A stretch of 64,000 nucleotides of DNA from an uncultured bacterium. GTDB taxonomy: Bacteria > Patescibacteriota > Minisyncoccia > Phycocordibacterales > Phycocordibacteraceae. How positions within the stretch are numbered: position 1 is the first letter of the stretch; the number at the start of each line of letters is the position of its first letter. The DNA is taken from contig CAWKPH010000001.1 in the NCBI GenBank assembly GCA_963851445.1, forward strand, positions 553,363 through 617,362, given 5' to 3'. Below, one piece after another: positions 44,661 to 64,000 of this stretch. The notes below the pieces were generated by a model. The model had not been told where the DNA came from, searched no databases, and was given only the letters and a program-made list of their open reading frames with translations. The translations under genes were made by a program, and so were the position numbers.

Positions 44661-44662
44661 GG

Positions 44663-45085: not shown

Positions 45086-45189
45086 GGTTCATGCGTCCTT
45101 TTGGCGCACTATATAGTTGGTGGAAAGAACGGGCAATGAGCCCAAAGGTTCTCTTTATCTATATCATTTAAATTTATTTTGTCAACTGT

Positions 45190-45265: not shown

Positions 45266-45333
45266 ATGTACTTGACAGAGTAAGAATAATATATTATTGT
45301 ATTAACGAATTTTGTTCCTGATGGAGAAAACAG

Positions 45334-45561: not shown

Positions 45562-45638
45562 AGAACTGGCGCATGCGGAGAAAATCCGTGTGCGCCAATT
45601 ATTTTTATTTCTTTACGACGTTCACGATTTTCACCCTA

Positions 45639-45716
45639 GCCTCGCATGATAGAGGACGTTAGAACATGTTTGGTATGAAAAAGCCCGCATTGCTGCGAGC
45701 TCAGAATGAGAAGGGT
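45639..45716 (+). repeat. Cassette-array repeat A10 (GCCTCGCATGATAGAGGACGTTAGAACATGTTTGGTATGAAAAAG)
   Basis: Family A copy. Confidence 0.8.
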
Positions 45717-46265: not shown

Positions 46266-46325
46266 GATTGCCTCCTGTGTAATTCCCGATTTCAGTATAC
46301 GATCTGCCCTCGATTTGTCAGCCCC

Positions 46326-46418
46326 GTCACGTATGACGTAAGAACTTGTAGGGTATGAAAAGAAAAAGACCGCCTCCCCGAGACACCGGAAAGACAGTCT
46401 CTGCAGAGAAGCGGTCGT
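46326..46418 (+). repeat. Cassette-array repeat A11, divergent (CGTCACGTATGACGTAAGAACTTGTAGGGTATGAAAAGAAAAAG + long hairpin GACCGC...GCGGTC)
   Basis: The mini-hairpin is replaced by CGTCA..TGACG and TTAGAAC becomes TAAGAAC. The terminator hairpin lies just before the stop of 46429..46770. Confidence 0.6.
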
Positions 46419-46428
46419 GAAAGTGGTC

Positions 46429-46770
46429 TCAAGCCACTTCGGTCACAACACGGTCGATGAGGTTTGTCGGTTCCGACAGCTCCATCTCGAAGAGCTTCTT
46501 CAGGGCGGAGATGCCCATGAGTGTGGCGAGAGCAACCATCTGGTCGTGCTCTTCACGTTTGAAGAGCTTGGTCACCGTCCAGAGTTCACGAACTCGACCA
46601 GGCATGCGTTCGAACTTCAGGCCGACCACCGGTTGGTGCCTGTCACCGACCGATACAAGCTCGATCTTGCGACCGAACTGAGCCAACAAGAAAAGGCTGC
46701 GATCCATGATGTTATCCTTTTGTGAAAAGCCAGACGTCTGGCAACAAATTCGGTACGTATATGAAAACAT
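46429..46770 (-). CDS. Hypothetical protein (probable start MDRSLF... at ~46707) (cassette gene)
   Basis: I chose this over the overlapping plus ORF 46417..46725 because it has a terminator, a repeat and an upstream TTGACA. Confidence 0.4.
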   Translation of the reverse strand: MFSYTYRICCQTSGFSQKDNIMDRSLFLLAQFGRKIELVSVGDRHQPVVGLKFERMPGRVRELWTVTKLFKREEHDQMVALATLMGISALKKLFEMELSEPTNLIDRVVTEVA

Positions 46771-46790
46771 GCACAGGAGCGTTTGTCAAG

Positions 46791-46838
46791 GCTCCGCGCA
46801 GTGCATGAGGTTAGAACGTGTATGTAAAAGAAAAAACC
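46791..46838 (+). repeat. Cassette-array repeat A12 (GCTCCGCGCAGTGCATGAGGTTAGAACGTGTATGTAAAAGAAAAAACC)
   Basis: Family A copy. Confidence 0.75.
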
Positions 46839-46852
46839 TACTCGCGTCTACT

Positions 46853-47320
46853 CTACACGCTTTCGGTTTTCTTGACGGCAAATCTCCAGAAGGGAGCCCA
46901 GCCGGCATCGATGATGCGCACTCGTATTCCATGTCCAGCTCCTGCATGAATACAGGGTACGAATCGGTATCCTCGAGGATCTTCCCATGTATCCTTCGGA
47001 GCTGTGATCGGAGGAGCATGTTCAAGTTGCGGATTGCTTGCCCGAAGCTCAAGTAGCTCTGCGGCATTTACTGCTTCATAACCCTCATTCAGAAGCAACA
47101 TAGCCGTGTCTTCCTTATGGCTGATCCACCAATCGAAGGAAACGAGATCGATTGAAACCGACTGAAGCCCATAACACAGTTGTGGGAAGTGCTCGTCAGT
47201 GAGGCGCGCATCGATGTAGTCTGGCGGATTCTCTTTTAGTGTAATCCGTCTCAGAATGCGTCTGATAGTCTGAGACCCCAGATAGGGAACCTGCACTTCA
47301 AAGTGCTCTACAATTTTCAT
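46853..47320 (-). CDS. Hypothetical protein, 155 aa (cassette gene)
   Basis: Extended -10 TGATATAAC and SD AAGAGG lie upstream on the minus strand. Confidence 0.45.
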   Translation of the reverse strand: MKIVEHFEVQVPYLGSQTIRRILRRITLKENPPDYIDARLTDEHFPQLCYGLQSVSIDLVSFDWWISHKEDTAMLLLNEGYEAVNAAELLELRASNPQLEHAPPITAPKDTWEDPRGYRFVPCIHAGAGHGIRVRIIDAGWAPFWRFAVKKTESV

Positions 47321-47377
47321 TCGACTACCTCTTGTTGATCTAAGTGAGTTATATCACTTTTTTATTTTTTTCAGATC

Positions 47378-47442
47378 CACCTCTGTCATGAGGTTAGAAC
47401 CTATGTATAAAAGAAAACCGCCCAATTGCTTGGACGGCTTGG
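47378..47442 (+). repeat. Cassette-array repeat A13 (CCTCTGTCATGAGGTTAGAACCTATGTATAAAAGAAAACC + hairpin CCGCCCAA..TTGGACGG)
   Basis: Family A copy lacking the GCTCCGC head. Confidence 0.7.
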
Positions 47443-47463
47443 TTTCTTCGTTAAGCTGATCGA

Positions 47464-48018
47464 TTAGAAAATCTCATGAATGAAGCCGAGCTCTTTGGCT
47501 TCTTCGGCACTCATATCCCGATCTTCCGCAAGCAGCTTACGCATCCTGCGAATCGGCATGCCGGTTTTGTCAGAATACATGCGAACGATTGTTTCTTCTT
47601 GCTTAACTGCTTCATCGATGAGTTCCTGCATTCGAGCTTTGCTTTTGACTGAGCTCGTTGGAAGGTTCATCCATGAGTGCCGCCCTTCGTGAACAAGTAT
47701 TGTTGAACCTTCTTCACAAAGGCGACGATCACACATGAGAAGTATCGTTACCGCTGCAGATCTCGCAGCGCCATAGACACGAACGGTCTTGTGGCCCATG
47801 TAGTCTTGCAGAAGCCGAGCGATGAAAAGGCCAGCTCTTTCGTACCCGCCATGACTTGATAGACGTATTTGTATAGCGGGCGAGTCGCGCGCTGTGAGGA
47901 CGGTCATGGCCGCAAGCACATACTCGGCCATTTGTTGGTCGACCTCCCCTTGAAGGAAGAGAGTATTCTTATCCAGCAGCTCTCTTTCGAGACCTGTCAT
48001 GCAATTGTCTAGCGACAT
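47464..48018 (-). CDS. ClpP-like (S14 family) serine protease (cassette gene)
   Basis: GAARSAAVTILLMCD (Ser region) and VHEGRH (His region) line up with the ClpP catalytic motifs. Promoter GCGGAGC ATAAA TTGACG N16 TATTAT. Confidence 0.55.
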   Translation of the reverse strand: MSLDNCMTGLERELLDKNTLFLQGEVDQQMAEYVLAAMTVLTARDSPAIQIRLSSHGGYERAGLFIARLLQDYMGHKTVRVYGAARSAAVTILLMCDRRLCEEGSTILVHEGRHSWMNLPTSSVKSKARMQELIDEAVKQEETIVRMYSDKTGMPIRRMRKLLAEDRDMSAEEAKELGFIHEIF

Positions 48019-48090
48019 TTAACTAACATCTCCGATGCAGACGTAATTTCCTGAATGATAATAACACGAACCAATGATTCGTCAATTTAT

Positions 48091-48150
48091 GCTCCGCCTC
48101 ATAGAGGATGTTAGAACGCGGGTGGTATGAAAAACCGCCCTTTCTTGAGG
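48091..48150 (+). repeat. Cassette-array repeat A14 (GCTCCGCCTCATAGAGGATGTTAGAACGCGGGTGGTATGAAAAACC + hairpin CCGCCCT..AGGGACGG)
   Basis: Family A copy. Confidence 0.8.
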
Positions 48151-48173
48151 GACGGTCTTGAGTGTTATGCGGA

Positions 48174-48530
48174 TCAGAGTCCGTTTCGAGCGTAAAAGTC
48201 CTGAGAAGCTTTGGCGTATGCGGTCGGATCGCCATTGAGCTTTACGACACGGCTGATCATTCCCAACGACCCGCTCCCTTTGAGGCTTCTCAGAACATCA
48301 AGACTACCGTTTGCAAGGTCGATGCGTTCTGGAAAGCCATTCTTGTAGTAGATGTCGCCGCTGCAAGATACGGGATTCGACTCACAGCCCTCCACCCATG
48401 CAGAGACTTCTGCGGGGGGTGGGGAATTGGAGGACGATACGCTGTGATGCTTGCCAAGAACGGCGTGAAAATAGAGGATGGCAAACACGACGATTAGTCC
48501 AAGGAAAAGGTACCGACCACGCATATCCAA
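48174..48530 (-). CDS. Secreted hypothetical protein (likely start ATG at 48524) (cassette gene)
   Basis: Signal peptide MRGRYLFLGLIVVFAILYFHA. Promoter TTGACA N17 ATAATA and SD AGGAGG. Confidence 0.5.
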   Translation of the reverse strand: MDMRGRYLFLGLIVVFAILYFHAVLGKHHSVSSSNSPPPAEVSAWVEGCESNPVSCSGDIYYKNGFPERIDLANGSLDVLRSLKGSGSLGMISRVVKLNGDPTAYAKASQDFYARNGL

Positions 48531-48608
48531 AACCCCTCCTTAGGGCAGTAGCATGAACATTCTGACTGCATCTATTATGCAAAGGTCACAATGCATGTCA
48601 AGTATAAG

Positions 48609-48692
48609 TGCTCTGCTATGAGGTTAGAACGCGGGTATGAAAAAAGCCGCCCGGAGCACAACGAAGTAAACTCCGGGGGCTTCAGGCGGTCA
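48609..48692 (+). repeat. Cassette-array repeat A15 (GTGCTCTGCTATGAGGTTAGAACGCGGGTATGAAAAAAG + hairpin GCCGCCCGGAG..CTCCGGGGGC)
   Basis: Family A copy. The hairpin plus T-run on the minus strand terminates 48690..49529. Confidence 0.75.
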
Positions 48693-49529
48693 GTTGTAAA
48701 TGCGATCCAGATAGAGCACGGTGCCGTAACATTTTTCGCTCCAGAGGATGTGAACGTAGTCTCTCCAGTTCGCAAATGGCAGAATATAGCCGCCGAACTT
48801 CCTGGGCAGGTTATTCGGTAGATATCGCTGCATCTCGTGCCTTGCGCGGTCAGTAAGTGGAAAAAGAATCTTCTGGTCGCCGTACGAGAGAACGGCCATC
48901 GAATCTCCGGTTCTCTGCTGCTGCCGAATCTTCTCCGGAATGACCAGGAAGTCGAACCAGTGCTTTTGGAAGCGCGAGTTCAGGGGTGGTTCTTGCCCAA
49001 ACTCCTCATCGACAGGGCTTGAGTAGCTCGCAATTGCCGGTCGTCCAGGGATGGGCGTCGCGGTCTTGGTGTCGAAGTTGAAGTGCGCAAGGATCCGCAT
49101 GACGTGAGCGAGTGCACCAGCCGCATCCTCCTTGCGGAAGTTTCGAACCTCACTCGTCGGCCAGTTTTGTCCAGGGCACGGAATCTGGCATTGCATGATG
49201 CTGAAGTCGCCTTCGAAAGCGTAACGGACATAGGCGATGCAGTCGTCATTCTTGACGAAACCAACTCCCTCGAGGTGAGCCATGTCCTCGTCTGCTACTG
49301 CACCGGCGAGCAGATTGATCTGCCAGGAATCCTGTGGCGTCGCACCAACATTGCAGACACCGATATGTCCGGGATGGACGTCGGTGATGCGCATCTTGTC
49401 GCTCAGTCCGCAGAACTCGATGCATTCTTGAAGCAGCTTGGCGAACTGCTCGGCGCGTGGCAGAGAGGCTGTCTTGTCGATGTCTCTTTGACGCTCATAG
49501 GCTTCTCGTTCGAGCGATGTGTCGCTCAT
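48690..49529 (-). CDS. Hypothetical protein, 279 aa (cassette gene)
   Basis: Promoter GCGGAGCACAAT TTGACA N15-17 TATATAAA upstream on the minus strand. Confidence 0.5.
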   Translation of the reverse strand: MSDTSLEREAYERQRDIDKTASLPRAEQFAKLLQECIEFCGLSDKMRITDVHPGHIGVCNVGATPQDSWQINLLAGAVADEDMAHLEGVGFVKNDDCIAYVRYAFEGDFSIMQCQIPCPGQNWPTSEVRNFRKEDAAGALAHVMRILAHFNFDTKTATPIPGRPAIASYSSPVDEEFGQEPPLNSRFQKHWFDFLVIPEKIRQQQRTGDSMAVLSYGDQKILFPLTDRARHEMQRYLPNNLPRKFGGYILPFANWRDYVHILWSEKCYGTVLYLDRIYN

Positions 49530-49630
49530 GGTTTGAACCTTTCTTGCTGCTAGAATGAATAGAACGAACGGACTTCAGGAGCCCGTACTGTGGTGTTTTA
49601 TATAATGGAGTTCTGAACTTGTCAAATTGT

Positions 49631-49716
49631 GCTCCGCCTCTGCTATGAGGTTAGAACGTGGGTATGAAAAAACCGCAAGAGAGGGGATTGGACCCTCGTC
49701 CTGCGGCGTCAAAGGT
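49631..49716 (+). repeat. Cassette-array repeat A16 (GCTCCGCCTCTGCTATGAGGTTAGAACGTGGGTATGAAAAAACC + hairpin)
   Basis: Family A copy. Confidence 0.8.
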
Positions 49717-49731
49717 AGTTCTTGCTCGATC

Positions 49732-50406
49732 TCAAACGTACCCTTTGGTTCGTGCCCGTGCGTACATGCTCTCCGCATCAGCCTTTAGCTCCTCGAGGAG
49801 GTGACTGTTCACGGTGAGGGAACTAGGGGCGTCTAACGAGTCAGCTACCTGTCCAACCAGAGCGCCTTCCTGATTTATCATTGGGCTGCCCGACAATCCC
49901 GGATGGATTCCCGGAATCTCGAACAGTCGCACATCCCGAGCACGATCGCGGCTACCAATCCAAATTGCCGATTTGATGATGATGTCCGTGGCACAGCCTG
50001 TAAGGTGGGTATCAGCCAGCGTGCCTTTCCATGCCACCTCGAACCGGTCCTCGGACGACCCCACCACATATTCGGGAATTGCTATAGGCTCGCCCTCACT
50101 TAGAGAGATTGCCCATGGCAACGGCTCGGCGACAAGTGGCCTTTGCAGAATCGCGATGGCACAGTCAAGGTTCTTGGAGAAAGCGACGTTCGGTACAGCA
50201 CAGCGCATGTCGGTTGATACGTGCCGAGCAATTACTGTTTCCGGCACGGCACCAGTAAAATTATGTGCACAGGTAAGGGTGGCGCGGCGGTTGGGGAAGC
50301 AGGCAAAACCAGAACCCCATCCAACCGTCCCATCTTGCTTCCCGATGGTAAAAATGACCATCGCCTGCCGAAGCTGTTGAAGAACTTGTTGGCGGAATAG
50401 GCTCAC
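49732..50406 (-). CDS. Trypsin-like (S1 family) serine protease (cassette gene)
   Basis: His LTCAHNF, Asp DCAIAIL and Ser GLSGSPM motifs. Confidence 0.6.
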   Translation of the reverse strand: MSLFRQQVLQQLRQAMVIFTIGKQDGTVGWGSGFACFPNRRATLTCAHNFTGAVPETVIARHVSTDMRCAVPNVAFSKNLDCAIAILQRPLVAEPLPWAISLSEGEPIAIPEYVVGSSEDRFEVAWKGTLADTHLTGCATDIIIKSAIWIGSRDRARDVRLFEIPGIHPGLSGSPMINQEGALVGQVADSLDAPSSLTVNSHLLEELKADAESMYARARTKGYV

Positions 50407-50465
50407 CTTGCGACCCTTTCATGTCTGATTCCGAAGGGACTATAGCATGGAAATCGAAATTGTCT

Positions 50466-50540
50466 GCTCCGCATGATAGAGGACTTTAGAACGTGTTTGG
50501 TATAAAAAAGGCCACCGAAGGGGTTCCGGTGGGTGAGACT
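50466..50540 (+). repeat. Cassette-array repeat A17 (GCTCCGCATGATAGAGGACTTTAGAACGTGTTTGGTATAAAAAAGG + hairpin CCACCGAAGG..CCGGTGG)
   Basis: Full-length family A copy. Confidence 0.8.
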
Positions 50541-50552
50541 TAGCCTCGAGGA

Positions 50553-50894
50553 TTACTTGTTGCTGCTGATTTGTTTCAGCACACCTGGGCTGCAGGGAAC
50601 CCAGGTGATGGTCATGCTGTCGGCATTGGCCTTGCCCAGCTCTGCACTCATGGTGACGCCATAGCACTCGCCGGAGAGAGAGTCTTTCACGTAGGTGACC
50701 TTGGCCACCGCGGCGCTGGCTGTTTCTGGGTCTGGCTTGCGGGTCTGCACGCCGCACGCACTGAGCGCGAGAACGGAGGACAGAACAACACCGACTTTCA
50801 AGCTTGAGCGGATGCTCATGATATGTCTCCTAAATAGGAACAGTTGCCGAACTAATACTACAGTGACAGTAGGATAGGCACAGTATGTTGTCAA
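50553..50894 (-). CDS. Lipoprotein (likely start MSIRSS..., lipobox LSAC) (cassette gene)
   Basis: Signal peptide and LALSAC G lipobox. Confidence 0.5.
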   Translation of the reverse strand: MTTYCAYPTVTVVLVRQLFLFRRHIMSIRSSLKVGVVLSSVLALSACGVQTRKPDPETASAAVAKVTYVKDSLSGECYGVTMSAELGKANADSMTITWVPCSPGVLKQISSNK

Positions 50895-50963
50895 GATTTG
50901 CTCCCCGATGTGGGAATCTTTATAAAATGAAAAAGGTCGGCACTTGCATGCCGACCCACCAAC

Positions 50964-51701
50964 CTAGTCCCCCTCAACTAAGTATTTAGAAATCCAGCCC
51001 TCCTCACGCGCGATGTTGACGACTCGAGAGGACTCATTGTGCGTCAAGCCGTATTTGGTCTCAAGTCCGCGACGCAAGGCCTCTGTTCTACCGCCAAACA
51101 CCATGAACTCTCCATCAGAATCTTCGAAGCCGAGTTCGCGGAGTAGATCTCGGGTCTTCCACACCGTTTGCCAAAAACGAGTCCGCAGGTCATGTTCGAG
51201 AGACTCTGGTGCTCCGCGGTCTGTATGAAGTGCAAGCAGCTCGCTGACCGTTGGGCGCCTAAAGCGCAGGAACTCCTGATCATTAGGCGCAAAATCATCA
51301 ATGTAGCTCTCCATACACAGGATCAGCTCGAGTGAGACTGTGGGGAGGCCTATTGCCGGCTGCCTCAAGAGCTCTTCCTTTGAGAAAGCTCGTAGAATTT
51401 CTGGTGTCACAGTAGTTTGAGGCATGAAGGGCCAGTCAAAACGAGTCAATCCGAGATCGGTAAGTTTGCGCGTAAAAGTACGCATGGGCGAAGTTGCTTT
51501 GTAGTGACGGATATACTGACGAGAGCTATACAAGACTTGCTCAACCGTAATTACAGAGCAAAGCCATGCCTCGTTCCTTTTTCGTTCTTCAGTATCCTCG
51601 CCAAGAGGTCGACACGCTCTTCGAATCAATTCACTGGTGCTGGTGGAACGCAACCCCAACTGCTCAATAGTCATGTGAAAGATCTGTTCCTTGAGGCTCA
51701 T
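50964..51701 (-). CDS. Hypothetical protein, 245 aa (cassette gene)
   Basis: No recognisable motifs. It is the last minus-strand module before the degenerate repeat A18. Confidence 0.45.
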   Translation of the reverse strand: MSLKEQIFHMTIEQLGLRSTSTSELIRRACRPLGEDTEERKRNEAWLCSVITVEQVLYSSRQYIRHYKATSPMRTFTRKLTDLGLTRFDWPFMPQTTVTPEILRAFSKEELLRQPAIGLPTVSLELILCMESYIDDFAPNDQEFLRFRRPTVSELLALHTDRGAPESLEHDLRTRFWQTVWKTRDLLRELGFEDSDGEFMVFGGRTEALRRGLETKYGLTHNESSRVVNIAREEGWISKYLVEGD

Positions 51702-51795
51702 GGCCTTCTCCTGTCTAGTATCGCTTCCAGGGTCGGAATGCGATATAAAGCTTACCCTAGTGCATTTTGCGTACTAGTCAATAAATACCGACGAC

Positions 51796-51835
51796 TAGTG
51801 CTATGAGATTAGAACGTGTTTGATATAGAGGAAGG
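51796..51835 (+). repeat. Cassette-array repeat A18, degenerate (CTAGTGCTATGAGATTAGAACGTGTTTGATATAGAGGAAG)
   Basis: Retains TATGAG-TTAGAACGTGTTTG. Confidence 0.55.
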
Positions 51836-51846
51836 GCGTATTTGAG

Positions 51847-51879
51847 GGGTTTACAATGAGCCAAAAAGGGGTTTACAAT
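51847..51879 (+). promoter_or_regulatory. Direct repeat GGGGTTTACAAT x2 (22-bp periodicity) upstream of 51887 gene; possible -35/-10 (TTTACA N17 TACAAT) or operator
   Basis: Two identical 12-mers 10 nt apart. They end 8 nt before the ATG. Confidence 0.4.
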
Positions 51880-51886
51880 AACTTTA

Positions 51887-52903
51887 ATGGCAGATGACAA
51901 AGGGGCAGTCGTTGACTTTATATTCAAGAATGTTGAAGAGCATACAACAGATATTGCAGCTCTGCTTGTCCAAGAATTTGGATTTTCCAGACAAAGAGCC
52001 AATTTCTACCTGTCTAGAGAAGTAGAAAGAGGGACACTAATACCTTTTGGGAATACTCGAGCAAGACGTTATTTCCTTGCGGGAGGGAGCCATATTGAAT
52101 TTCAGTTGCCTTTAGAAGGGCTTTCAGAGGATAGGGTTTGGCTAAGATATATAAAACCAATGGTGCTTGCATATCCAAACAACATCTTGCGAATAGCGAA
52201 TTATGGTTTTACTGAGATATTGAACAATGCGATAGACCATTCAGGTGGAACGAGTGCATATGTGAGCCTACAGCGTACGCAGGGAAAGCTTCAATTCACA
52301 ATAATGGACAACGGTATTGGTATATACGAAAAAATAAAACAAGCCCTAAACTTAAGCTCTCCTCGTGAAGCGATACTTCATTTGTCAAAAGGGAAGTTCA
52401 CCACCGATCCATCAAACCATACGGGGCAAGGTATATTCTTCACCTCAAGGATTTTTGATAAGTTTTCAATCTCGTCGGACGACATGTATTATTCTTTTTC
52501 AGGTATGGAATGGTTTCTTTCTAACGAAAAACCAGAGAAGTTTGGTAATGGAACTTCTATACAAATGGAAGTGTCGCTAGATTCAAAAATAACACCAGAA
52601 GAAATAATGGATAAATACTCAGATTTGGAAATAGGGTTCACGAAAACGATAGTCGCAGTGGCTCTGAGTGAAGATCCTAACGACCCACACGTATCTAGAT
52701 CTCAAGCAAAGAGACTAATGATGGGGTTAGAGAAATTTCAAACCATTGTTCTTGATTTTAAGGGAGTAGGATCGGTCGGCCAGGCCTTTGTAGATGAGGT
52801 TTTTAGGGTATTTCAAAATGAATATCCTAATATTAGAATCCAATATATTAATGCAAATCCAGAAGTCGATTTGATGATTAAGAGAGGCCTAGCAACAGGT
52901 TAA
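51887..52903 (+). CDS. GHKL-type ATPase domain protein with C-terminal DUF4325/STAS-like domain
   Basis: ILNNAIDHSGG (N box) and IMDNGIGI (G1 box). C-terminal VVLDFKGVGSVGQAFVDEVFRVF. Confidence 0.5.
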   Translation: MADDKGAVVDFIFKNVEEHTTDIAALLVQEFGFSRQRANFYLSREVERGTLIPFGNTRARRYFLAGGSHIEFQLPLEGLSEDRVWLRYIKPMVLAYPNNILRIANYGFTEILNNAIDHSGGTSAYVSLQRTQGKLQFTIMDNGIGIYEKIKQALNLSSPREAILHLSKGKFTTDPSNHTGQGIFFTSRIFDKFSISSDDMYYSFSGMEWFLSNEKPEKFGNGTSIQMEVSLDSKITPEEIMDKYSDLEIGFTKTIVAVALSEDPNDPHVSRSQAKRLMMGLEKFQTIVLDFKGVGSVGQAFVDEVFRVFQNEYPNIRIQYINANPEVDLMIKRGLATG

Positions 52904-52909
52904 TTAGGA

Positions 52910-53164
52910 TTAAAATCGCAAAAGTTCCCAGCTCTCCATACGAAGGGCACGTGCAAGTCGCTCAATCGTGCCAAGAGTAAGATTTGCTTCTCCGCGCTCA
53001 ATCATTCCAATGTAGTTTCTGCTCAGTCCAGCGACTGAGGCTAGCGATTCTTGACTCAAACCTCGTCGGAGGCGTTCGTTTCTAAGCTTCTTGGCGAAAC
53101 GGGTAAGAACGGTTGACAACCTATCCATACCTGATGGTATTCGTAAACGGCCTACGTGAGGCAC
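52910..53164 (-). CDS. XRE-family helix-turn-helix transcriptional regulator
   Basis: LRRGLSQESLASVAGLSRNYIGMIERGEANLTLGTIERLARAL. Confidence 0.75.
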   Translation of the reverse strand: MPHVGRLRIPSGMDRLSTVLTRFAKKLRNERLRRGLSQESLASVAGLSRNYIGMIERGEANLTLGTIERLARALRMESWELLRF

Positions 53165-53249
53165 GGGAAATAAATCCAGCGTTCGAACCTAAAAATATCC
53201 TTGATTTGTCTGACGAAAATGAGGTTTTTGCCTCAATTCGTCCTAGAAT

Positions 53250-53290
53250 GCTCCGCATGTTGGTCGATGTCAGAACCTAAAAAATGAAAG
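53250..53290 (+). repeat. Cassette-array repeat, degenerate remnant (GCTCCGCATGTTGGTCGATGTCAGAACCTAAAAAATGAAAGG)
   Basis: Retains GCTCCGCATG, CAGAAC and an A-run. Confidence 0.45.
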
Positions 53291-53404
53291 GATTCTGGCA
53301 GCAACCGATCTGGGAGTGTGGTCACAGAATACCAAAGGGAACGATGTTGATAGTACTCCGTTACCAAAAGAGCGTCAAACGCAATATCGGTGTAAACTGT
53401 CTCC

Positions 53405-53953
53405 ATGTCCGATGGTAAAACCATAGAAGAACGTGCCAAGGAGTACGACGAGATTCGTAAGAATGCTGAAGAGCTCTACGCTACTTTCAAGCCTGTTAAA
53501 TGTCTCGCTCTTGGTGGCGAAATTGTGCATTTTACCTCAGAAGGCTTCAATCACCTTGTCTACGATAAGCCGAAGAAGATGCGAGATTTGCGTGCTCAGA
53601 TACTGAGATTCGATATGCTTGAAAGAGCGAAGTTTATTATCGAAACCTCAACGACCTATCAAGAGTATGATGAGGACATACGATACAAGAAGGTGAATAG
53701 GCACGGTAAGTATATTGAGATGCCTGTCATGGTACGTACCTGGGGACTGGTGGCAGTGGTCAGAAACTTTCGTGTAAAAGTCGTCATCAAGCAAGAAGGT
53801 AACGGCAAGAAAGAGTTCTATAGCGTCATACCTGCCTGGTTTACGAAGCAGTACCGAGATATAAAAATGATCCAGAGTTCGACTGGCAAAGGTCTGCTTT
53901 CAGAAGATGATGATGAGGTACTAAAAAACGCCACACAAGGTGGCGCTCTTTAG
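53405..53953 (+). CDS. Hypothetical protein, 182 aa
   Basis: ORF with a lysine-rich middle. No motifs. Confidence 0.4.
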   Translation: MSDGKTIEERAKEYDEIRKNAEELYATFKPVKCLALGGEIVHFTSEGFNHLVYDKPKKMRDLRAQILRFDMLERAKFIIETSTTYQEYDEDIRYKKVNRHGKYIEMPVMVRTWGLVAVVRNFRVKVVIKQEGNGKKEFYSVIPAWFTKQYRDIKMIQSSTGKGLLSEDDDEVLKNATQGGAL

Positions 53954-54235
53954 TATGTCTGTCTCCAGCTCAGAAATTGGCCAGATAGGACTGACGTCCC
54001 GCAGACACCTCACCAGTATACACTTTTGACGCAAGGAGACAAGGTTGTACACAGCCTGAAATATGCCCTACACAAAGCTTCACAGGAGCTTCATTTGGGC
54101 TGGCCGATTTTTAAGACAATTGCTCGAATAAACAAAAAACTCCCCCATAGGGAAGTTCTTTGGCAGAGTAGCGAGCAAACGAGATGCTCGTTCACTCCCG
54201 CAACGCGGCTCTCGGTATACCCGTAAGCGTGGGAG

Positions 54236-54287
54236 GGGAAGGGAGTATAAAAGAAAAAGCCTCGCAACCAGATGTTGCGAGGCTCCC
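54236..54287 (+). repeat. Cassette-array repeat B4 (GGGAAGGGAGTATAAAAGAAAAAG + hairpin GCCTCGCAAC..GTTGCGAGGCT)
   Basis: Short variant. The hairpin plus TTTTCTTTTATAC on the minus strand terminates 54314..54868. Confidence 0.65.
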
Positions 54288-54313
54288 GTGGCTAATCGGG
54301 CTAAGCCTGAATC

Positions 54314-54868
54314 TTAATGCCTCACTCGAAGGCGCTCGAAATCCCGTTTCAACATCCAGATCCTTGGATAGTGATTGTCGCAGGGATAGCCGAGCTTATC
54401 GATAGATTTATTAAGTGGCTCCGACGACCGTTTATAACGAACGGACACGCTCGTGCCATCCCTGCTTTGAGAGAGGCTGGTCAGGGTGCCCGGTTCCAAG
54501 AAACAGCCCTCACCATCGCCGCTCGGAACCCACTGCGGTTTACGGGAGGTATGCACGGTCTCTTTCTTGACCGGACATTCTCCCCGCATGGGACCAGACG
54601 TATAGCAGCGATTGGCAGCCCAAACGTCCGTCGAAGCGACAGTGAAAAGGGCTGCGAGAATGATAATCGAGCGCATGTGAGAGTATCCTTGTATTCGATT
54701 GTGAAGCCAGACAAACTGGCGGTGAACATTCTTGAATAAAGTAGCACGAGTATCGAAGTACGTCAAGGGTTCGTAATGTTTCAATACCTTGTACTCACCT
54801 TTAAAGTACAACCATGGCATACACCCAAAACCCCAGACTGTATTATCCGGGGTTCCCGTCGAAGGCAT
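54314..54868 (-). CDS. Secreted hypothetical protein, 184 aa
   Basis: Internal signal-like segment MRSIIILAALFTVASTDVWA. The true start is probably that Met. Confidence 0.4.
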   Translation of the reverse strand: MPSTGTPDNTVWGFGCMPWLYFKGEYKVLKHYEPLTYFDTRATLFKNVHRQFVWLHNRIQGYSHMRSIIILAALFTVASTDVWAANRCYTSGPMRGECPVKKETVHTSRKPQWVPSGDGEGCFLEPGTLTSLSQSRDGTSVSVRYKRSSEPLNKSIDKLGYPCDNHYPRIWMLKRDFERLRVRH

Positions 54869-55314
54869 GTCGGGTAAGCCTTAAAGAGCATTTCTGCAAA
54901 AGACCTATCTGATCCTGGCCTCTCAGTGTCGAGGGTGCCATTCCTCAACAACTGAGAGGTTATCCAGGATCTTCGTCATCCAGCTCACAGACCCTCGCCA
55001 TTGGTGTCATGCACCAACGCAGGCTTGGAATCCCTGGAATGACGTGGCCGGATAGGCGACCACCTCTGTTGCTTGTACATATCTTCCTGGGCGAGTGCTA
55101 CTCACCGCACTTGTGTGCTGCAGGAAAACAGTATTCATCAAGCATTTCGGACCCTGGTAAGGCTAGGTACTCACTGGCTAGTGAGTACTACATGCTCCAT
55201 TGGTCACCTGAGTGACATGAAGCACCTAGCAAAACCGCTCCGTGGCCCAAGAGAGGGCACATGTACTTGCATAGGGACTTTGCCCTATCAGCTCACGAAA
55301 CTTTCGCGAGCTGA

Positions 55315-55380
55315 ATAGAGGGGAGAAACGAGTTCTCCCAAGTGATAGTTTTGTTTCTGTTGCCAAGCGGGGTATCAGCC
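55315..55380 (+). repeat. Second repeat family, copy 1 (AATAGAGGGGAGAAACGAGTTCTCCCAAGTGATAGTTTTGTTTCTGTTGCCAAGCGGGGTATCAGCC)
   Basis: Near-identical to the copy at ~55732. It contains the hairpin GGGAGAA-cgag-TTCTCCC. Confidence 0.7.
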
Positions 55381-55725
55381 GGCTACTTTATGTCTAATTG
55401 ACTCTCTGTATACAGCGCCGTTGATGGTTACTTCATCTTTGGCGTAGGAAAGCAGTCGGCCATTTTCGAACCAACCAGTCCCGCCATCGCATTCGACTAA
55501 ATCGCCGACCTTGACCTCTGGGTACCACGTGTCGGTAAAATCAACATCTATGACACCAGCTGGAGTGAGTAGTTGCATAGGCGTGACTCGGGTATAACCA
55601 TCTTGTTCGGAGCCGTGATATTCGGCTTCCTTGATGATGGTGCCCTTGAATGCTGAGAGAAAGCAACCCATGGCGTAATCTCCGTGTTTGAAAGAACTAA
55701 TCTCGATAAGGACTCGATTTCTCAA
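55375..55725 (-). CDS. Hypothetical protein, 116 aa
   Basis: Flanked on both sides by the second repeat family. Confidence 0.4.
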   Translation of the reverse strand: MRNRVLIEISSFKHGDYAMGCFLSAFKGTIIKEAEYHGSEQDGYTRVTPMQLLTPAGVIDVDFTDTWYPEVKVGDLVECDGGTGWFENGRLLSYAKDEVTINGAVYRESIRHKVAG

Positions 55726-55731
55726 ATCCTT

Positions 55732-55830
55732 AATAGAGGGGAGAAACGAGTTCTCCCAAGTGATAGTTTTGTTTCCACATCCTTTCGGACTGAGAAACTT
55801 CTGTTGCCAAGCAGGATATCAACCCGCTCC
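55732..55830 (+). repeat. Second repeat family, copy 2 (same 45-bp core, with a 25-bp insertion before CTGTTGCCAAGCAGGATATCAACCCGCTCC)
   Basis: Identical over AATAGAGGGGAGAAACGAGTTCTCCCAAGTGATAGTTTTGTTTC. Confidence 0.7.
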
Positions 55831-55836
55831 GTTCCG

Positions 55837-56277
55837 CTAGTCCGACTCCTCAAGTCGCCTTGCAAGCACCTCCTGGAGAACCAGGGTTGGCAACTGCTCA
55901 GCTAACTTTTCGAAATCGGGAGCATCCTCCCTGTCTTCTTCCCAATCCGACGAACTCCACTCGTGCAGATAGGTAAGTGACAGGGCATGCCTCGTGTTCA
56001 GGATAGACAAGATGCCCTCAAGGCTTCTCGGCTCCTCCTCAACGCAAGGCGGATACTCGTCCCAAAGGTAGGTTTCATTATCACAGTCCGAGAACCGGAA
56101 TACCATGAAATGACCCGTAACCTCTGGCAGGCGGCCCCTTTCCTGAAGAAAGCCCCCGATGGCTTCAGCCTCCGAGGCCTCCACTTTCAGGAGATTGACC
56201 GTAGCTTCGTATTCGGTGATGAGGCTGCTCATAGTCAATCTCCTTTCAAGAGATGTGGGTGGTGCCCGTTGATTCAA
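55837..56277 (-). CDS. Acidic hypothetical protein (immunity-protein-like composition)
   Basis: 146-aa ORF rich in D/E and W. It ends at the repeat. Confidence 0.35.
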   Translation of the reverse strand: MNQRAPPTSLERRLTMSSLITEYEATVNLLKVEASEAEAIGGFLQERGRLPEVTGHFMVFRFSDCDNETYLWDEYPPCVEEEPRSLEGILSILNTRHALSLTYLHEWSSSDWEEDREDAPDFEKLAEQLPTLVLQEVLARRLEESD

Positions 56278-58433: not shown

Positions 58434-59771
58434 GTGTTATTGAAAACCCTAGCCAAAATAGGAGATATGTTGTACAATCCAAAACAAGCGCATATGCAAG
58501 CGAACACCGCCACAATCGCAAAACCCTTGTTTGATAGAGGGTTTTTCTCTGCAAGCTCGATCATCTTCGCTGGCGCGTTCGTCGTCAATATTCTCAACTA
58601 CATCTTCACACTCATTATGAGCCGCCTGCTTGGAGTGGCTGCATTCGGCGAGGTTGCTGCAATGATAAGTCTCCTGACTATCATCGCAGTGCCCGCAAGC
58701 GCCCTAGCCATGCTTATGACGCGTGAAGTCGCTTTCCGCAGTGCGTCTGGTGGAGATGAGGTGCGCAATCTCTTCCTCTTCCTACGCAAGCACATACTCA
58801 TCGCTGCCTTCGGCTTCTGGGTTCTCTTTTTGGCCGTCGCTCCACTGCTTTCATACTTCTTGCATATACCATACCTGCTCTTTGCAGTATTTAGTCTCAT
58901 ACTTCCATTCTCCATCGCGGGAGCTCTGCAATCTGGTACGCTTCAAGGGTTGCAGGAGTTTTTCACGCTCTCCAAGCAGAATGTTCTTGGCGCAATCATT
59001 AAGCTCGCCATCGCCATCCTTCTTGTGCTTGCTGGATTTTCGGTACTTGGCGTGGTCGTAGCGCTCGTCTGCGCACAGGGTGCTACATGGCTTTTTGGAT
59101 ATCTAGCAACGAAGAGCACGCTTGACCTCTCTCGGGATACCCCACGTCAGCCGATGGATGCGCGGCCCCTCCGTCTCTTCTTCTCCGTGACGCTTATCAC
59201 GACGTTCCTGCTTGCACTCCTGTCGAATACGGATCTACTCCTAGCTAAGCACTTTCTGCCGGAGACGCTTGCGGGGGAATATGGCGGCCTCTTCACGCTC
59301 GGCAACATTATCATCTACGGTATTGGTGCATTCACGACCGTACTTCTGCCTATGGCCTCTTCCGCACGCGCCAAAGGAAACGGAGGAGAGCGGCACATTC
59401 TGGGTCTCTCTATGGCGGTCATAGCGGTTGCTGCCTTTGCCGCGTGGGCGCTCTTCTCGCTGTTCCCAGGGATCATTATCGGTCTTCTCTTTGGAGCACG
59501 GTACCTATCAGTTGCTCCTGTGCTTGGCCGCTACGCCATTGCCGAGGGATGCATCTCGCTCTCGCTCGCGCTTATCAATTATTTCGTAGCTGTAGGCAAC
59601 AAGTCATTCCTTTATATGCTAGGGCTCGGTATTCTGGTGGAAGTGGGGCTTATTTGGTTCAATCACACTTCCATCCTCGCCATCACCACGATGCTGGTCG
59701 CATCTTCCGTGCTCCTGCTCGTACTGATGGCCTCGAATTATTTCTTTACCACTAAGCCACGCACCATATGA
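58434..59771 (+). CDS. Polysaccharide biosynthesis protein / Wzx-like flippase (MOP superfamily)
   Basis: 445 aa with ~12-14 TM helices. Confidence 0.6.
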   Translation: MLLKTLAKIGDMLYNPKQAHMQANTATIAKPLFDRGFFSASSIIFAGAFVVNILNYIFTLIMSRLLGVAAFGEVAAMISLLTIIAVPASALAMLMTREVAFRSASGGDEVRNLFLFLRKHILIAAFGFWVLFLAVAPLLSYFLHIPYLLFAVFSLILPFSIAGALQSGTLQGLQEFFTLSKQNVLGAIIKLAIAILLVLAGFSVLGVVVALVCAQGATWLFGYLATKSTLDLSRDTPRQPMDARPLRLFFSVTLITTFLLALLSNTDLLLAKHFLPETLAGEYGGLFTLGNIIIYGIGAFTTVLLPMASSARAKGNGGERHILGLSMAVIAVAAFAAWALFSLFPGIIIGLLFGARYLSVAPVLGRYAIAEGCISLSLALINYFVAVGNKSFLYMLGLGILVEVGLIWFNHTSILAITTMLVASSVLLLVLMASNYFFTTKPRTI

Positions 59772-60714
59772 AAAAGAAAGTGATCTCCATTGTCATACCG
59801 GTACATAACGAGGAAAAGAATATCCCGCTCGTGTATACAGAGCTGCGAAAGATAGTCGGGGGGGTCCAGCATTCCCCTATGCATACGAGATACTGTTCGT
59901 GAACGACGGGAGCACAGACGGGAGCCAGAAGGCGATTGACGCGCTCGCTGCTGAAGACGAAGCGGTGCGCGGCATCGAGTTCACACGCAATTTTGGCAAA
60001 GAAGCAGCGACCACCGCCGGTATTCGTGAGGCAGCAGGGGATGCGGTGATTTGTCTTGATGCCGACCTACAGCACCCGCCAGCGCTGATACCCGAGTTCA
60101 TCAAACGCTGGGAGAGCGGAGCGGAAGTAGTCGTCGGTGTGCGTTCGAGTAACAATGGGGAAGGCCTCGTGAAGCGCTACGGCTCTAAGCTTTTCTATGC
60201 GCTCATGTCGCGTATCTCGGATACTCCGCTTATCCCGGGAGAAACTGATTTTTGTCTTCTTGACCGTGAGGTGGCGGAAGCATTTAAGACGCTCCGCGAG
60301 CGTGGACGCATGACGCGCTCCCTTATCAGTTGGCTCGGGTATAGAAAGGAAACGATTCCTTTTGCCGCCCCCGCCCGCTTGCACGGGACAGCATCGTATT
60401 CGTTCACGAAGCTCGTGCGGCTTGCACTCAACTCTATTGCCTCTAACTCTCTTTTCCCGCTGCGTGCAGCCGCATATCTCGGCCTCTTCATTACCGTGGG
60501 TTCGTTTGTGCTCGGCGTCGTCGTTTTTGCTGAACGGTATCTCTTTGCCGACGCCCTGCATTGGCATGTCTCGGGCGCAGCACAGCTTTCCATCATTAAT
60601 GCGTTTCTGGTTGGCATCGTGATGATGATGCTTGGGCTCGTCTCCATCTATATCGGCCGCATCAACGAGGAGGTCTCGCATCGACCGCTCTATGTGGCTC
60701 GCAAGCAGAAGTAA
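59768..60714 (+). pseudogene. GT2 polyprenyl-phosphate glycosyltransferase (DPM1-like) interrupted by a -1 frameshift in a G7 homopolymer (59858..59864); the intact frame needs G8
   Basis: ATG 59768 encodes MKKKVISIVIPVHNEEKNIPLVYTELRKIVGG and then stops. Adding one G restores ...GGGPAFPYAYEILFVNDGSTDGS, which is continuous with track ORF 59899..60714. Confidence 0.6.
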
Positions 60715-60720
60715 TAAGTC

Positions 60721-61821
60721 ATGAAGGTACTCTGGCTCACATGGAAAGATAGAAAGAATCCTTTAGCGGGCGGAGCTGAAGTGGTGAATGAAGAACTTGC
60801 GAAGCGACTCGCAGCGGATGGTCATGAAGTGATTTTCCTGGTTGGCGGGTTCACTGGAGGTGAGGCTGAAGAGATGCGCGATGGATTTAAGATTGTCCGC
60901 GTAGGTAGTCGCTTTAGCGTATATTGGCACGCATATAAATACTATAAGAAGCATCTTTCAGCATGGCCAGATTTAGTCATAGACGAAGTAAACACGATTC
61001 CATTTTTCTCGAAGTTCTACGCCAAGCAAAAGAATCTACTGTTCGTACACCAGCTTTGCCGTGAAATCTGGTTCTATGAAATGTTCTTCCCGCTCAGTAT
61101 CATCGGCTACGTTATCGAGCCAATATACCTCTGGCTCCTACGCGACAGGGAAGTCATCACAGTCTCGGAAAGCACCAAAAAAGACCTTATACGTTTTGGA
61201 TTCAAAGCAGAAAAGATACATATAATAAGTGAAGGTATTGAGATTGAGCCATTAGCAGACTTGAATTTAGTGCAGAAGTTCCCACATCCTACTGTCCTCG
61301 CGCTTGGTACTATACGAGCGATGAAGCGTACGGATCATATAGTGAGGGCGTTTGAAATTGCGAAAGCGGCTATTCCAGATTTGGAATTGGTAGTGGCTGG
61401 AAAGGCTGAAGGGAAGTATGGCGAGAAGGTATTAAAGATGCTGAAGGATTCGTCTTATGCGAGTTCGATAAAGTACCTCGGTCCAGTGTCGAAAGAAAAG
61501 AAGATCGAGCTTCTACAGAAATCTCATGTACTTGCAGTCACTTCAATAAAGGAAGGATGGGGACTTGTTGTGACTGAAGCGGGAAGTCAGGGCACTCCAG
61601 CAGTCGTCTATGATGTAGATGGGCTTCGTGATAGTGTTAGGGATGAAAAGACAGGAATCGTTTGTCGAAAGAATACTCCACAGAAGCTTGCGGTAGGTAT
61701 TTCCAATGTGCTCAAAAGTGATACCTATAGTCAGTATTGCGAAAGAACATGGAATCTCAATAAGAAGATTACTTTTAGTAAGAGTTATGAAGATTTTTTA
61801 AATATTATTACTCATGTTTAA
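60721..61821 (+). CDS. GT4 (group 1) glycosyltransferase
   Basis: C-terminal GT-B motifs: EGWGLVVTEAGSQGTPAVVYDVDGL. Confidence 0.75.
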   Translation: MKVLWLTWKDRKNPLAGGAEVVNEELAKRLAADGHEVIFLVGGFTGGEAEEMRDGFKIVRVGSRFSVYWHAYKYYKKHLSAWPDLVIDEVNTIPFFSKFYAKQKNLLFVHQLCREIWFYEMFFPLSIIGYVIEPIYLWLLRDREVITVSESTKKDLIRFGFKAEKIHIISEGIEIEPLADLNLVQKFPHPTVLALGTIRAMKRTDHIVRAFEIAKAAIPDLELVVAGKAEGKYGEKVLKMLKDSSYASSIKYLGPVSKEKKIELLQKSHVLAVTSIKEGWGLVVTEAGSQGTPAVVYDVDGLRDSVRDEKTGIVCRKNTPQKLAVGISNVLKSDTYSQYCERTWNLNKKITFSKSYEDFLNIITHV

Positions 61822-62620
61822 TCCACTCGTATCAGTTATTGTTCCTACTAAAAATTCCTCTCAATTCATAGAGGCTTGCTTGAAATCTATTAAGGAACAA
61901 ACATATAAAAACATTGAGATAATCGTTGTCGATAACAGCTCAACTGATGATACGCAGATTATAGCTAAGAAATATACAGAGCTTGTTTTCACAAAAGGTC
62001 CCGAACGAAGTGCTCAAGTTAATTATGGCGTAGAGAAATCAAAGGGTGAATTTGTATACAAAGTTGATTCTGATTTTACCTTAGACCCTAAAGTTGTTGA
62101 AGAATGTGTATTAGAAGCAAATAAAGGTTTTGATGCGATTATAGTTCATAACTCTCCCGATGTAACTGTCAGCTGGATAGCAAAAATACGAAAATTTGAG
62201 GTAGATATGTATAAATATGACATTACACATTCCTCAGCACGATTTGTTAAAAAAGAAGTGTATCAAAAGATCGGTGGCTTCAATGAAAAGATTACTGCAG
62301 GAGAAGATTATGATTTTCAGAATAAATTAAATAGACAGGGTTACAAGACAGGTTTCATTGTAGCTGAAGCACTTCATCATGGAGAACCAAAATACTTTTG
62401 GCCTCACATGATGAAATATTTTGCTTACGGTAGAGACTTTGTTAATTACAAGGCAGAAAATGAAGAGGAGTCTAAGGAGCAATTAAGCCTTGGTAGATCC
62501 GTATACTTTAAAAATTGGAAGAATTTCCTCAAGCACCCCATTCTTGGAGGCGAATTTATAATTTATACGTTGTTTAAGTTTGGATTTGGAGGCGTTGGAT
62601 ATATTTTTGGAAAACTATGA
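61814..62620 (+). CDS. Family 2 glycosyltransferase
   Basis: VSVIVPTKNSSQ...IVVDNSSTDDT and DSD/GEDYD motifs. Confidence 0.7.
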   Translation: MFNPLVSVIVPTKNSSQFIEACLKSIKEQTYKNIEIIVVDNSSTDDTQIIAKKYTELVFTKGPERSAQVNYGVEKSKGEFVYKVDSDFTLDPKVVEECVLEANKGFDAIIVHNSPDVTVSWIAKIRKFEVDMYKYDITHSSARFVKKEVYQKIGGFNEKITAGEDYDFQNKLNRQGYKTGFIVAEALHHGEPKYFWPHMMKYFAYGRDFVNYKAENEEESKEQLSLGRSVYFKNWKNFLKHPILGGEFIIYTLFKFGFGGVGYIFGKL

Positions 62621-63819
62621 AGATTTTCCACATTGAGCTTGCAAAAACAGGAACCGGCTTAAGCGGCGGAGAAAAGTGCATGGTTGAGATAATTCGTTAT
62701 TTCACTCAAAAGAAGTTAGTAAATGTGATATTGACGACAGACAATGGAAAGGAGCTTTACGAGCGACTTGGTTTGAAGGAAGATGAATACATAAAGTATA
62801 TAACGATTGATTCATTCTGGACTGAGTCGAAATTTCATATATTCATTTCTTATATTCTACGCCTTTTCTACTTCGGCAAGATTAAGAAAAGCATCATCGC
62901 TTCAATAGATAGAGAGAGCGATGTTTTGATGTGCCACTCCGATTTCTTTCCAAACACCATTCCTTCATGGGAGCTTTCTAAGTATTTTAATAAGAAAACA
63001 TTTTACTGGTTCCACATGAAGGCACCAGATATTTGGCGTGGTTATATGGGAGAATTCACAGGTAAGTTTCATTTGCCGAACATACGAATTATTCACTATA
63101 AACTTAACCAAGTGCTATTTAATCTTATTTCTAAAAAAGGGATTATTATAAGTGTGAATCCATATTACAAGAGTCTATTTAAGAAAAAGGGTACCTATCT
63201 CTTAAAGAAATTCGGCGGGGAACAAGTATACACAATCAATAAGTACTCTGGAGTTAAGGCTGGATATACTCAGGAGACTGAAATCAAGTACGATCTAGCC
63301 TTTATGGGTAGGTTTCATCCACAAAAGGGTCTTGATGAAATACCAAAGATACTTAAAGAAATAAAATCCTATAAGCCAGACGTAAAGCTTGTTATTATAG
63401 GTGGTGGCGATGAAGCCCGTGAAAAGAAGTTGCTGAAGGAACTAAACGCACTGGGTCTTCAAGAGAACTTCTATTATGCAGGTTACATTTCGTCCGACGA
63501 GAAGTTTGATTACTTGAGAAGCGCAAAAGTGTTTGTGTTTCCGAGTTATTATGAAAGTTTTGGACAAGTTGCACTTGAGGCGATGGCAAATGGGTTGCCG
63601 GTAGTTGCATACAATCTACCTATATTTAATGTGTTTGAGGAAGGAATGATAAAAGTTCCAGTTTTGGATAATGTAGCTTTTGCAAAAGAAACATACAAAC
63701 TTCTCTCAGATCCAGATTACTATAATAAGATGAAGAGTGAAGCTAGTTCTTATGCTGCAACATTCTCATGGGATAAAACCGGTGAGGAGATATATAAGCT
63801 CATCATGGGTATTTCCTAG
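62617..63819 (+). CDS. GT4 (group 1) glycosyltransferase
   Basis: C-terminal ESFGQVALEAMANGLPVVAY motif. Confidence 0.7.
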   Translation: MKIFHIELAKTGTGLSGGEKCMVEIIRYFTQKKLVNVILTTDNGKELYERLGLKEDEYIKYITIDSFWTESKFHIFISYILRLFYFGKIKKSIIASIDRESDVLMCHSDFFPNTIPSWELSKYFNKKTFYWFHMKAPDIWRGYMGEFTGKFHLPNIRIIHYKLNQVLFNLISKKGIIISVNPYYKSLFKKKGTYLLKKFGGEQVYTINKYSGVKAGYTQETEIKYDLAFMGRFHPQKGLDEIPKILKEIKSYKPDVKLVIIGGGDEAREKKLLKELNALGLQENFYYAGYISSDEKFDYLRSAKVFVFPSYYESFGQVALEAMANGLPVVAYNLPIFNVFEEGMIKVPVLDNVAFAKETYKLLSDPDYYNKMKSEASSYAATFSWDKTGEEIYKLIMGIS

Positions 63820-63821
63820 AT

Positions 63822-64000
63822 ATGTTTAAAAAATTTAAGTTACCCGTTTTTCTGGAAAACATTCTTATAGAGCAGAATGTTTTGGCATTACTTCTATTTT
63901 TCGTGATATTTGTATTGCTCTTTATTCCTATTTGGCATGGGGAGGGTCAATATTGGGATAATAGTTTTCCATTTTTTTCAGATCAGCTTGGCAACTACTT
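63822..64000 (+). CDS. Membrane protein, 3'-truncated by the window edge
   Basis: ATG at 63822 encodes MFKKFKLPVFLENILIEQNVLALLLFFVIFVLLFIPIW... with no stop before the window end. Confidence 0.35.
   Translation, partial: MFKKFKLPVFLENILIEQNVLALLLFFVIFVLLFIPIWHGEGQYWDNSFPFFSDQLGNY

Follow-up and report, generated by a model that had tools for sequence, protein, structure and literature searches.

Among the systems described so far, wlaN (and cgtB) of Campylobacter jejuni is the best mechanistic match for the locus analyzed here, a GtrB-like gene of glycosyltransferase family 2 (GT2) that is split by a frame break in a run of seven guanines (G7). The gene lies in a stretch of 64,000 nucleotides (nt) from an uncultured bacterium of the Patescibacteriota (GCA_963851445.1, contig CAWKPH010000001.1, positions 553,363 to 617,362), which was analyzed as a whole and is called the window below. 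Comparison with its relatives suggests that the G7 is most likely a genuine, recent slippage OFF allele at an ancestral G8 tract. That this OFF allele is also potentially reversible, and so switchable, is a tentative reading to which we give somewhat less than an even chance.

WlaN is a GT2 enzyme of surface glycans whose gene carries an intragenic G tract, with slipped-strand mispairing as the presumed mechanism (PMC7142995). It is a beta-1,3-galactosyltransferase, ON with G8 and OFF with G6 or G9 (PMC7142995). It differs from the enzyme of the window in that it is a soluble or peripheral enzyme extending lipooligosaccharide (LOS), and not a polyprenyl-phosphate transferase with membrane helices. 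The tract of wlaN is found at nt 331 of the gene and the tract of the window at nt 91. Moreover, G6, G8, G9 and mixed populations of wlaN have been documented among and within isolates, whereas one G7 population is seen here. In Neisseria, the LOS glycosyltransferase genes lgtA, lgtC, lgtD and lgtG also contain coding poly-G/C tracts that toggle the frame and alter the surface glycan, as the present tract would do (PMC5953494). However, the Neisseria tracts measure G9-20, with a cut-off of G9 (PMC5953494), and occur at dozens of loci per genome, while the tract described here is G7 or G8 and the sole one in 64 kb.

As regards the enzyme, the solved structure of GtrB, the undecaprenyl-phosphate glucosyltransferase of Synechocystis (sll0501, PDB 5EKP), is colinear with the protein obtained when the frame is restored. 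The restored protein shares with GtrB and ArnC the GT-A domain, the DXD motif and two C-terminal membrane helices. It differs from GtrB in a 3-residue Gly insertion at the alpha1-beta2 loop, and the neighbor of its gene encodes a Wzx-like flippase and not GtrA. A GtrB-family step under ON/OFF phase variation is known from the gtrABC systems of Salmonella and Shigella, which glucosylate the O-antigen, but there the control is epigenetic, through Dam methylation and OxyR acting at the promoter, and does not use a coding-region homopolymer. In the literature searched, no paper describes homopolymer phase variation of a GtrB-type gene, and none describes simple-sequence phase variation for Patescibacteria, the Candidate Phyla Radiation (CPR).

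A GtrB-like gene split at a G7 tract

The features that make up the split gene, together with the flippase gene that precedes it, are the following:

58434..59771, + strand, Wzx/MOP-type polysaccharide flippase gene (Pfam PF13440, 3.8e-11, also PF01943)
59768..59902, + strand, frame-0 5' portion of the GtrB-like GT2 gene (30 authentic codons, which cover beta1 and alpha1 of the GT-A fold, 2 Gly codons, 12 out-of-frame codons and a stop)
59858..59864, + strand, G7 homopolymer, site of the frame break, in codons 31-33 (orthologs with G8, GGG GGG GGT = Gly31-33)
59865..60714, + strand, rest of the GT2 gene in the -1 frame (NDGS motif, DAD (DXD) motif, two C-terminal membrane helices)
59899..60714, + strand, open reading frame (ORF) in the -1 frame with a GTG start, 271 amino acids (aa), MNDGSTDGS...
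59900..59902, + strand, premature TGA stop in frame 0, overlapping the GTG of the downstream ORF (GTGA, window 59899-59902)

An earlier sequence-only reading had placed a GT2 gene at ATG 59768, split in the G7, and had taken ORF 59899-60714 for the same protein; both its coordinates and its frames were confirmed. From this ATG, frame 0 encodes MKKKVISIVIPVHNEEKNIPLVYTELRKIV and then Gly-Gly from the G7 run, reading across the tract as MKKKVISIVIPVHNEEKNIPLVYTELRKIVGGVQHSPMHTRYCS and ending at TGA 59900-59902. The same reading had put the stop 14 codons after the tract, a number that is correct when counted from the first Gly codon; from the end of the tract the distance is 12 codons. The premature TGA is the out-of-frame product of the conserved FVNDG codons (GTG AAC), so any -1 allele of the family would stop at the same place. 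The -1 frame is open from 59809 to 60714, and its first start codon is the GTG at 59899. When one G was inserted (G8), an uninterrupted protein of 315 aa was obtained, and when two were removed (G5), one of 314 aa. The sequence ...GGGPAFPYAYEILFVNDG... that had been proposed for the G8 version is exactly what the orthologs encode.

The restored protein matched PF00535 over residues 7-170, straight through the tract, with an E value of 1.5e-32 and 113 bits (cut-off 23.3). Its residues 6-311 aligned with residues 28-326 of GtrB 5EKP (E=1.6e-60), and the structures of ArnC matched it over residues 4-311 (about 3e-38). Given the Pfam match across the tract, the GtrB alignment and the full-length intact orthologs described below, the two ORFs can be taken as one gene, far beyond chance. 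The NCBIfam models PgfS (1e-63) and ArnC (5e-44) both matched at full length, with scores under their equivalog cut-offs (215 vs 500 bits and 151 vs 529 bits, respectively). The term "DPM1-like" used in the sequence-only reading proved imprecise, the archaeal Dol-P-Man synthase structure 5MLZ matching only residues 5-132 (E=1e-15). Because the equivalog cut-offs were missed and the match to Dol-P-Man synthase was partial, the donor sugar cannot be assigned to the PgfS, ArnC or DPM1 type. By its sequence, the restored protein is thus best described as a GtrB/ArnC/PgfS-type polyprenyl-phosphate glycosyltransferase with two C-terminal membrane helices.

The AlphaFold2 (AF2) model of P0001, an 86%-identical ortholog (mean pLDDT 83), shows a GT-A core followed by long helices at residues 213-259 and 270-305, with beta1 at residues 5-12 and alpha1 at 18-30. 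The N-terminus encoded in the window is near-identical to those of P0001, P0003 and P0042. Gly31-33 would stand where the alpha1-beta2 loop (residues 31-38) begins, as a 3-residue insertion relative to GtrB. The family-invariant residues, D47, D98-A-D100, Q102, H103 and R126 among others, are kept in the window sequence. The allele of the window stops after 44 codons, and the 271-aa ORF, which is protein P0002 of public collections, starts at the end of beta2. Since this only remaining ORF has no beta1, alpha1 or beta2 of the nucleotide-binding fold, the allele is considered OFF; from what is known of GT-A folds, the 271-aa product is probably inactive. By descent, the gene belongs to the polyprenyl-phosphate glycosyltransferases of GT2, and as it was sequenced it would be a null allele.

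Tract length in related genomes and age of the break

The tract was compared in related strains. The G7 was present in the window and in L001, the Logan assembly of run ERR11630394, which is 100% identical to the window over 6816 nt. It is known from assembled contigs only, and the two G7 assemblies probably share a sample or reads. The tract was G8 and in frame in the nearest relative, represented by a JGI contig (L002) and a Logan contig (L003) with 96% aa identity, and in all seven contigs of an 86%-identical lineage (L004 and L086-L091, including NCBI GCA_021833225.1), that is, in nine contigs. Intact orthologs of 315-316 aa were 82-86% identical over 100% of the restored protein. In the 82%-identical lineage (L005 and L093) site 1, the position of the window tract, reads GGA GGC, one Gly fewer, and the distant orthologs (L094-L098 and L100) have no Gly insertion and no G/C run of at least 5-6 nt in the gene. 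As all the orthologs with a tract at site 1 read G8, this length is ancestral and conserved, and G7 a derived contraction of 1 bp.

A different in-frame G8 was found in the same gene of L005 and L093 (GAG GGG GGG GTA, codons 115-118, 'WEGGVEV'), at gene nt 345-352, which corresponds to 6345-6352 in L093 and 1080-1087 in L005. This second site reads GGC GGA or AGC GGA in the other lineages, so that an independent origin of a mutable tract in the sister lineage is possible. In L002/L003 the homology to the window ends in the middle of the gene, at 60330 (L002 5146-5720), and the 3' third of the GT2 gene, with the membrane helices, and the downstream glycosyltransferase genes are replaced by an unrelated 145-aa ORF. 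The closest relative has therefore inactivated the same gene independently. The locus is evolutionarily labile, as is also indicated by the sharp drop in GC content at the end of the gene, and the gene has been repeatedly switched off or lost in the clade.

The ratio of nonsynonymous to synonymous substitutions (dN/dS) was 0.061 against L002 (dS 0.30, 186 codons) and 0.058 against L004 (dS 1.45). In addition, the 850 nt of the 3' part carry no further lesion and keep all the family-invariant residues. These two observations indicate that the break is recent: the gene was under strong purifying selection until very recently, and the break is either young or not real.

Further alleles were looked for in larger collections. 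The exact look-ups in a collection of 15 billion proteins found no G8 or G5 allele of the window strain, no G7 or G9 allele of its relatives and no exact match to the 44-aa N-terminal peptide of the window strain. A homologue search anchored on the flippase, which is not biased to intact GT2 genes, returned no further close lineage, and its sole new locus, L100, has an intact GT2 gene with no tract. Two DNA scans of a metagenome collection, one with the tract context and one with the coding motif PAFxYAYEILFVNDG, gave no match, the lineage evidently not being in that collection. A scan of a genome collection with the family alignment gave, among the matches listed, homologues of at most 55% identity, the nearest being metagenome-assembled genomes (MAGs) of Patescibacteria. 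By the homologues of its HisRS and of the GT2 protein, the window belongs to the Patescibacteria, and its relatives are Parcubacteria/Minisyncoccia-like. P0011 was considered as a second frameshift and rejected, the gene being intact at its locus and its 5' truncation only apparent, due to a mis-called start.

A possible reversible switch or a dead-end knockout

The mechanism that we propose is the following. Enzymes of the GtrB/ArnC type take a sugar from a nucleotide-sugar and attach it to polyprenyl phosphate on the inner face of the membrane; the sugar is passed on later to a glycan or protein of the surface. In the common ancestor of the window strain and its nearest relatives, codons 31-33 were GGG GGG GGT, and this G8 run encoded a Gly-Gly-Gly loop between alpha1 and beta2. 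The loss of one G by slipped-strand mispairing in replication would have turned G8 into G7; translation, coupled to that of the flippase, would then end after 44 codons, leaving the ORF without beta1, alpha1 and beta2 (OFF, a null state). A +1 slip (or a -2 slip) in the same run would restore the frame and, if it occurred at a useful frequency, would make the locus a simple ON/OFF contingency switch of a surface-sugar modification.

With G7 the gene is out of frame and with G8 or G5 it is in frame, so a change in length toggles the ORF ON or OFF. Because a +1 (or -2) slip is enough to restore the frame, the locus can act as an ON/OFF switch. The G8 to G7 break is the kind of change by which slippage classically turns surface-sugar genes on and off, although phase variation in the strict sense is unproven. 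The stronger claim is that the G8 is a selected contingency tract, a hypermutable poly-G that a small clade of ultra-small Patescibacteria maintains in the 5' part of the gene, re-invented at another loop in the sister lineage and switching a surface-sugar modification; we regard this claim as unlikely.

Several observations bear on the maintenance of the tract. GGG is the rarest Gly codon (16.5%, 184/1112), GGGGGG occurs in only one of the 92 Gly-Gly pairs of the long ORFs, and GGG GGG GGT has nevertheless been kept across a dS of about 1.45, with a chance of about 0.1-0.2. Outside the GtrB-like gene, G/C runs of at least 8 nt were found once in about 93 kb of clade DNA and once in 527 kb of unrelated loci, and a second tract in the same gene of 948 nt is unexpected (about 0.01-0.05, post hoc). 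According to the AF2 model, both G8 sites encode Gly-Gly in helix-to-strand loops, and changes in length or Gly number would be tolerated at these loops, site 1 itself being an insertion relative to GtrB. Together with the independent loss of the 3' end of the gene in the closest relative, these data hint at a tract maintained by selection but are suggestive only.

Other results weigh against a selected and switching tract. The support for selection is only suggestive (roughly p 0.03-0.15) and post hoc. Apart from the G7 of the window and L001 against the G8 of L002/L003, no polymorphism in length was found: the nine other contigs with the tract at site 1 and the two with the tract at site 2 are all exactly G8, and neither the exact look-ups nor the flippase-anchored search described above added an allele or a close lineage. 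The G7 is the longest G/C run in the window, where no other reaches 7 nt, and is not statistically unusual, since 3.15 runs of 7 nt or more were expected from dinucleotide-preserving shuffles against the one observed; if anything, the 64 kb seem depleted of G/C homopolymers of this length. Genomes known to phase-vary carry many long G/C tracts, and several tracts per genome is the usual mark of a phasome; a single one was found in these 64 kb, which are about 9% of the genome. G7 and G8 are at or below the poly-G cut-off for phase variation in Neisseria (G9; PMC5953494). In the other direction, G8 is the ON length of wlaN, and a G7 tract, that of siaD, is on record as switching. Finally, the G7 may be a consensus error, a point that is weighed in the next section.

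The alternative that best survives, which we judge somewhat unlikely, is that the slippage was genuine but happened only once and serves no switch, a dispensable gene having been knocked out at a run of G8 that is merely a mutational weak spot. In this case the break would be the first step of gene loss, either in a reducing genome or in a rapidly remodeled glycan locus. The small genome of this patescibacterium (the contig has 687,765 bp) fits such an explanation, as do the independent loss of the 3' third in L002/L003, the fixation of all the other assemblies at G8 with no diversity in length, the lack of another long G/C tract in the window and the shortness of the tract against the usual cut-offs for phase variation. 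Against it, the gene has a dN/dS of 0.06 and no second lesion, and the glycosyltransferase genes downstream are intact. Furthermore, although the tract would be a harmful hot spot and uses the Gly codon that is rarest, it was kept across a dS of about 1.45, and the sister lineage acquired another G8 elsewhere in this gene.

Real mutation or sequencing error

The second alternative, which we consider quite unlikely, is that the cells carry G8 and an intact gene, one G having been under-called in sequencing or assembly. Several features invite this explanation: the G7 is the longest G/C homopolymer in the window, all the relatives with a tract at site 1 have G8, and the gene, which is under purifying selection, has no other defect. 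Moreover, an assembly in one contig of 688 kb points to long reads, which err mainly by indels in homopolymers, and the two G7 assemblies may share reads. However, the k-mer-based Logan assembly of ERR11630394 (L001) gave the same G7, within 6816 nt of complete identity. The behavior of the other homopolymers also speaks against an error. Ten of the 12 A/T runs with 7 nt or more, the three T8 all among them, lie inside intact long ORFs, and three of the four C6/G6 runs lie inside intact ORFs, that is, 13 other homopolymers of 6-8 nt are in frame. The positions of the short G/C runs and of the T8 runs are:

C6 at 11822 and 21600
G6 at 42067 and 48414
T8 at 125, 17858 and 24620

No other split gene was found among the approximately 80 ORFs of the window, and no other homopolymer breaks a gene. 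Overlapping ORF pairs at 23.5-25.0, 44.1-45.0 and 48.0-48.5 kb were examined as candidates for split genes and were discarded, being separate genes or having no Pfam hit. There is no general signature of homopolymer error in the window. Since G8 is ancestral, a second assembly reads G7 and no other homopolymer breaks a gene, a real mutation in the cells is favored over an error. Of the two options left by the sequence-only reading, phase variation or error, the comparative evidence shifts the odds away from the error, and strict phase variation stays unproven.

The weakest alternative, programmed recoding, in which the full-length enzyme would be made from the G7 by -1 slippage of tRNA-Gly or by G-adding transcriptional slippage, is very improbable: a -1 slip in the P site on GGG GGG G would re-pair perfectly and give the exact G8 product, and the overlap of the ORFs resembles that of recoded genes, but G GGG GGG does not fit the X XXY YYZ pattern of canonical slippery heptamers, the downstream RNA forms no stable structure (z=+0.74, with a fold as good or better in 155 of 200 shuffles), no Shine-Dalgarno-like stimulator is present upstream, no ortholog is out of frame, all being in frame with G8, and the known cases of transcriptional slippage in bacteria involve A/T runs of 8-9 nt or more.

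Neighboring genes and other features of the window

The GT2 gene is the second of an operon-like row of five genes, flippase-GtrB-GT4-GT2-GT4, whose last three members, all intact with Pfam matches, are:

60721-61821, + strand, GT4 gene
61814-62620, + strand, downstream GT2 gene
62617-63819, + strand, GT4 gene, last of the row

The ATG of the GtrB-like gene at 59768 overlaps the TGA stop of the flippase gene as ATGA, an arrangement that suggests translational coupling and a single operon, and no terminator-like site was found on the + strand between 57.8 and 61.0 kb of the window. The pairing of flippase and GT2 is common to all the relatives, whereas the gene content downstream differs between all those examined. 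The GC content is about 0.54 in the flippase and GtrB-like genes and 0.35-0.40 in the GT4-GT2-GT4 genes (window 60715-64000), and the drop falls exactly at the stop codon of the GtrB-like gene, which suggests a mosaic, horizontally exchanged cassette of glycosyltransferases. In one of the relatives, L086, an intergenic G6-A-G9 tract was observed at 186-201. It precedes a 71-aa ORF and the gene of a 605-aa serine recombinase with Resolvase/Recombinase domains, and the flippase-GT2 locus of that relative follows about 4.5 kb downstream of it.

Another neighborhood rich in glycan metabolism was found at 17353-29537 of the window. It contains a gene for an 844-aa protein in which a PMM/HAD-like domain is fused to an FAD-linked oxidase, as well as two GH130 phosphorylase-like genes, a GT2 gene beside that of a DedA/VTT-domain protein, and a PMT-family GT-C gene at 28062-29537. 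The product of the latter could be the acceptor-side partner of the GtrB-type enzyme.

In the region 41000-56000 there are some 25 short ORFs of 70-350 aa, most of them on the - strand, with gaps of 150-360 nt between them and a GC content of up to 0.55. None of the eight ORFs tested there had a Pfam hit, and the region may be mobile or otherwise unusual. No Rfam family or tRNA was detected anywhere in the window.

Significance of the split gene

If the G7 were an error or a dead-end knockout, the lesson would be limited to annotation: the 271-aa P0002 is a fragment, to be annotated as part of a frameshifted GtrB-like gene. If, on the other hand, the G8 were a selected contingency tract, no earlier case of simple-sequence phase variation would have been described in the CPR, nor one of a GtrB-type enzyme switched by a coding tract, and the switch could serve for phage escape or for altered attachment to host cells. 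More generally, a G7 that is both real and reversible would mean that genome-reduced episymbionts vary their surface glycans by the cheapest switch known, the slippage of a homopolymer. This would bear on how these episymbionts cope with phages and hosts, and poly-G tracts in CPR genomes would have to be treated in MAG curation as biology and not as noise.

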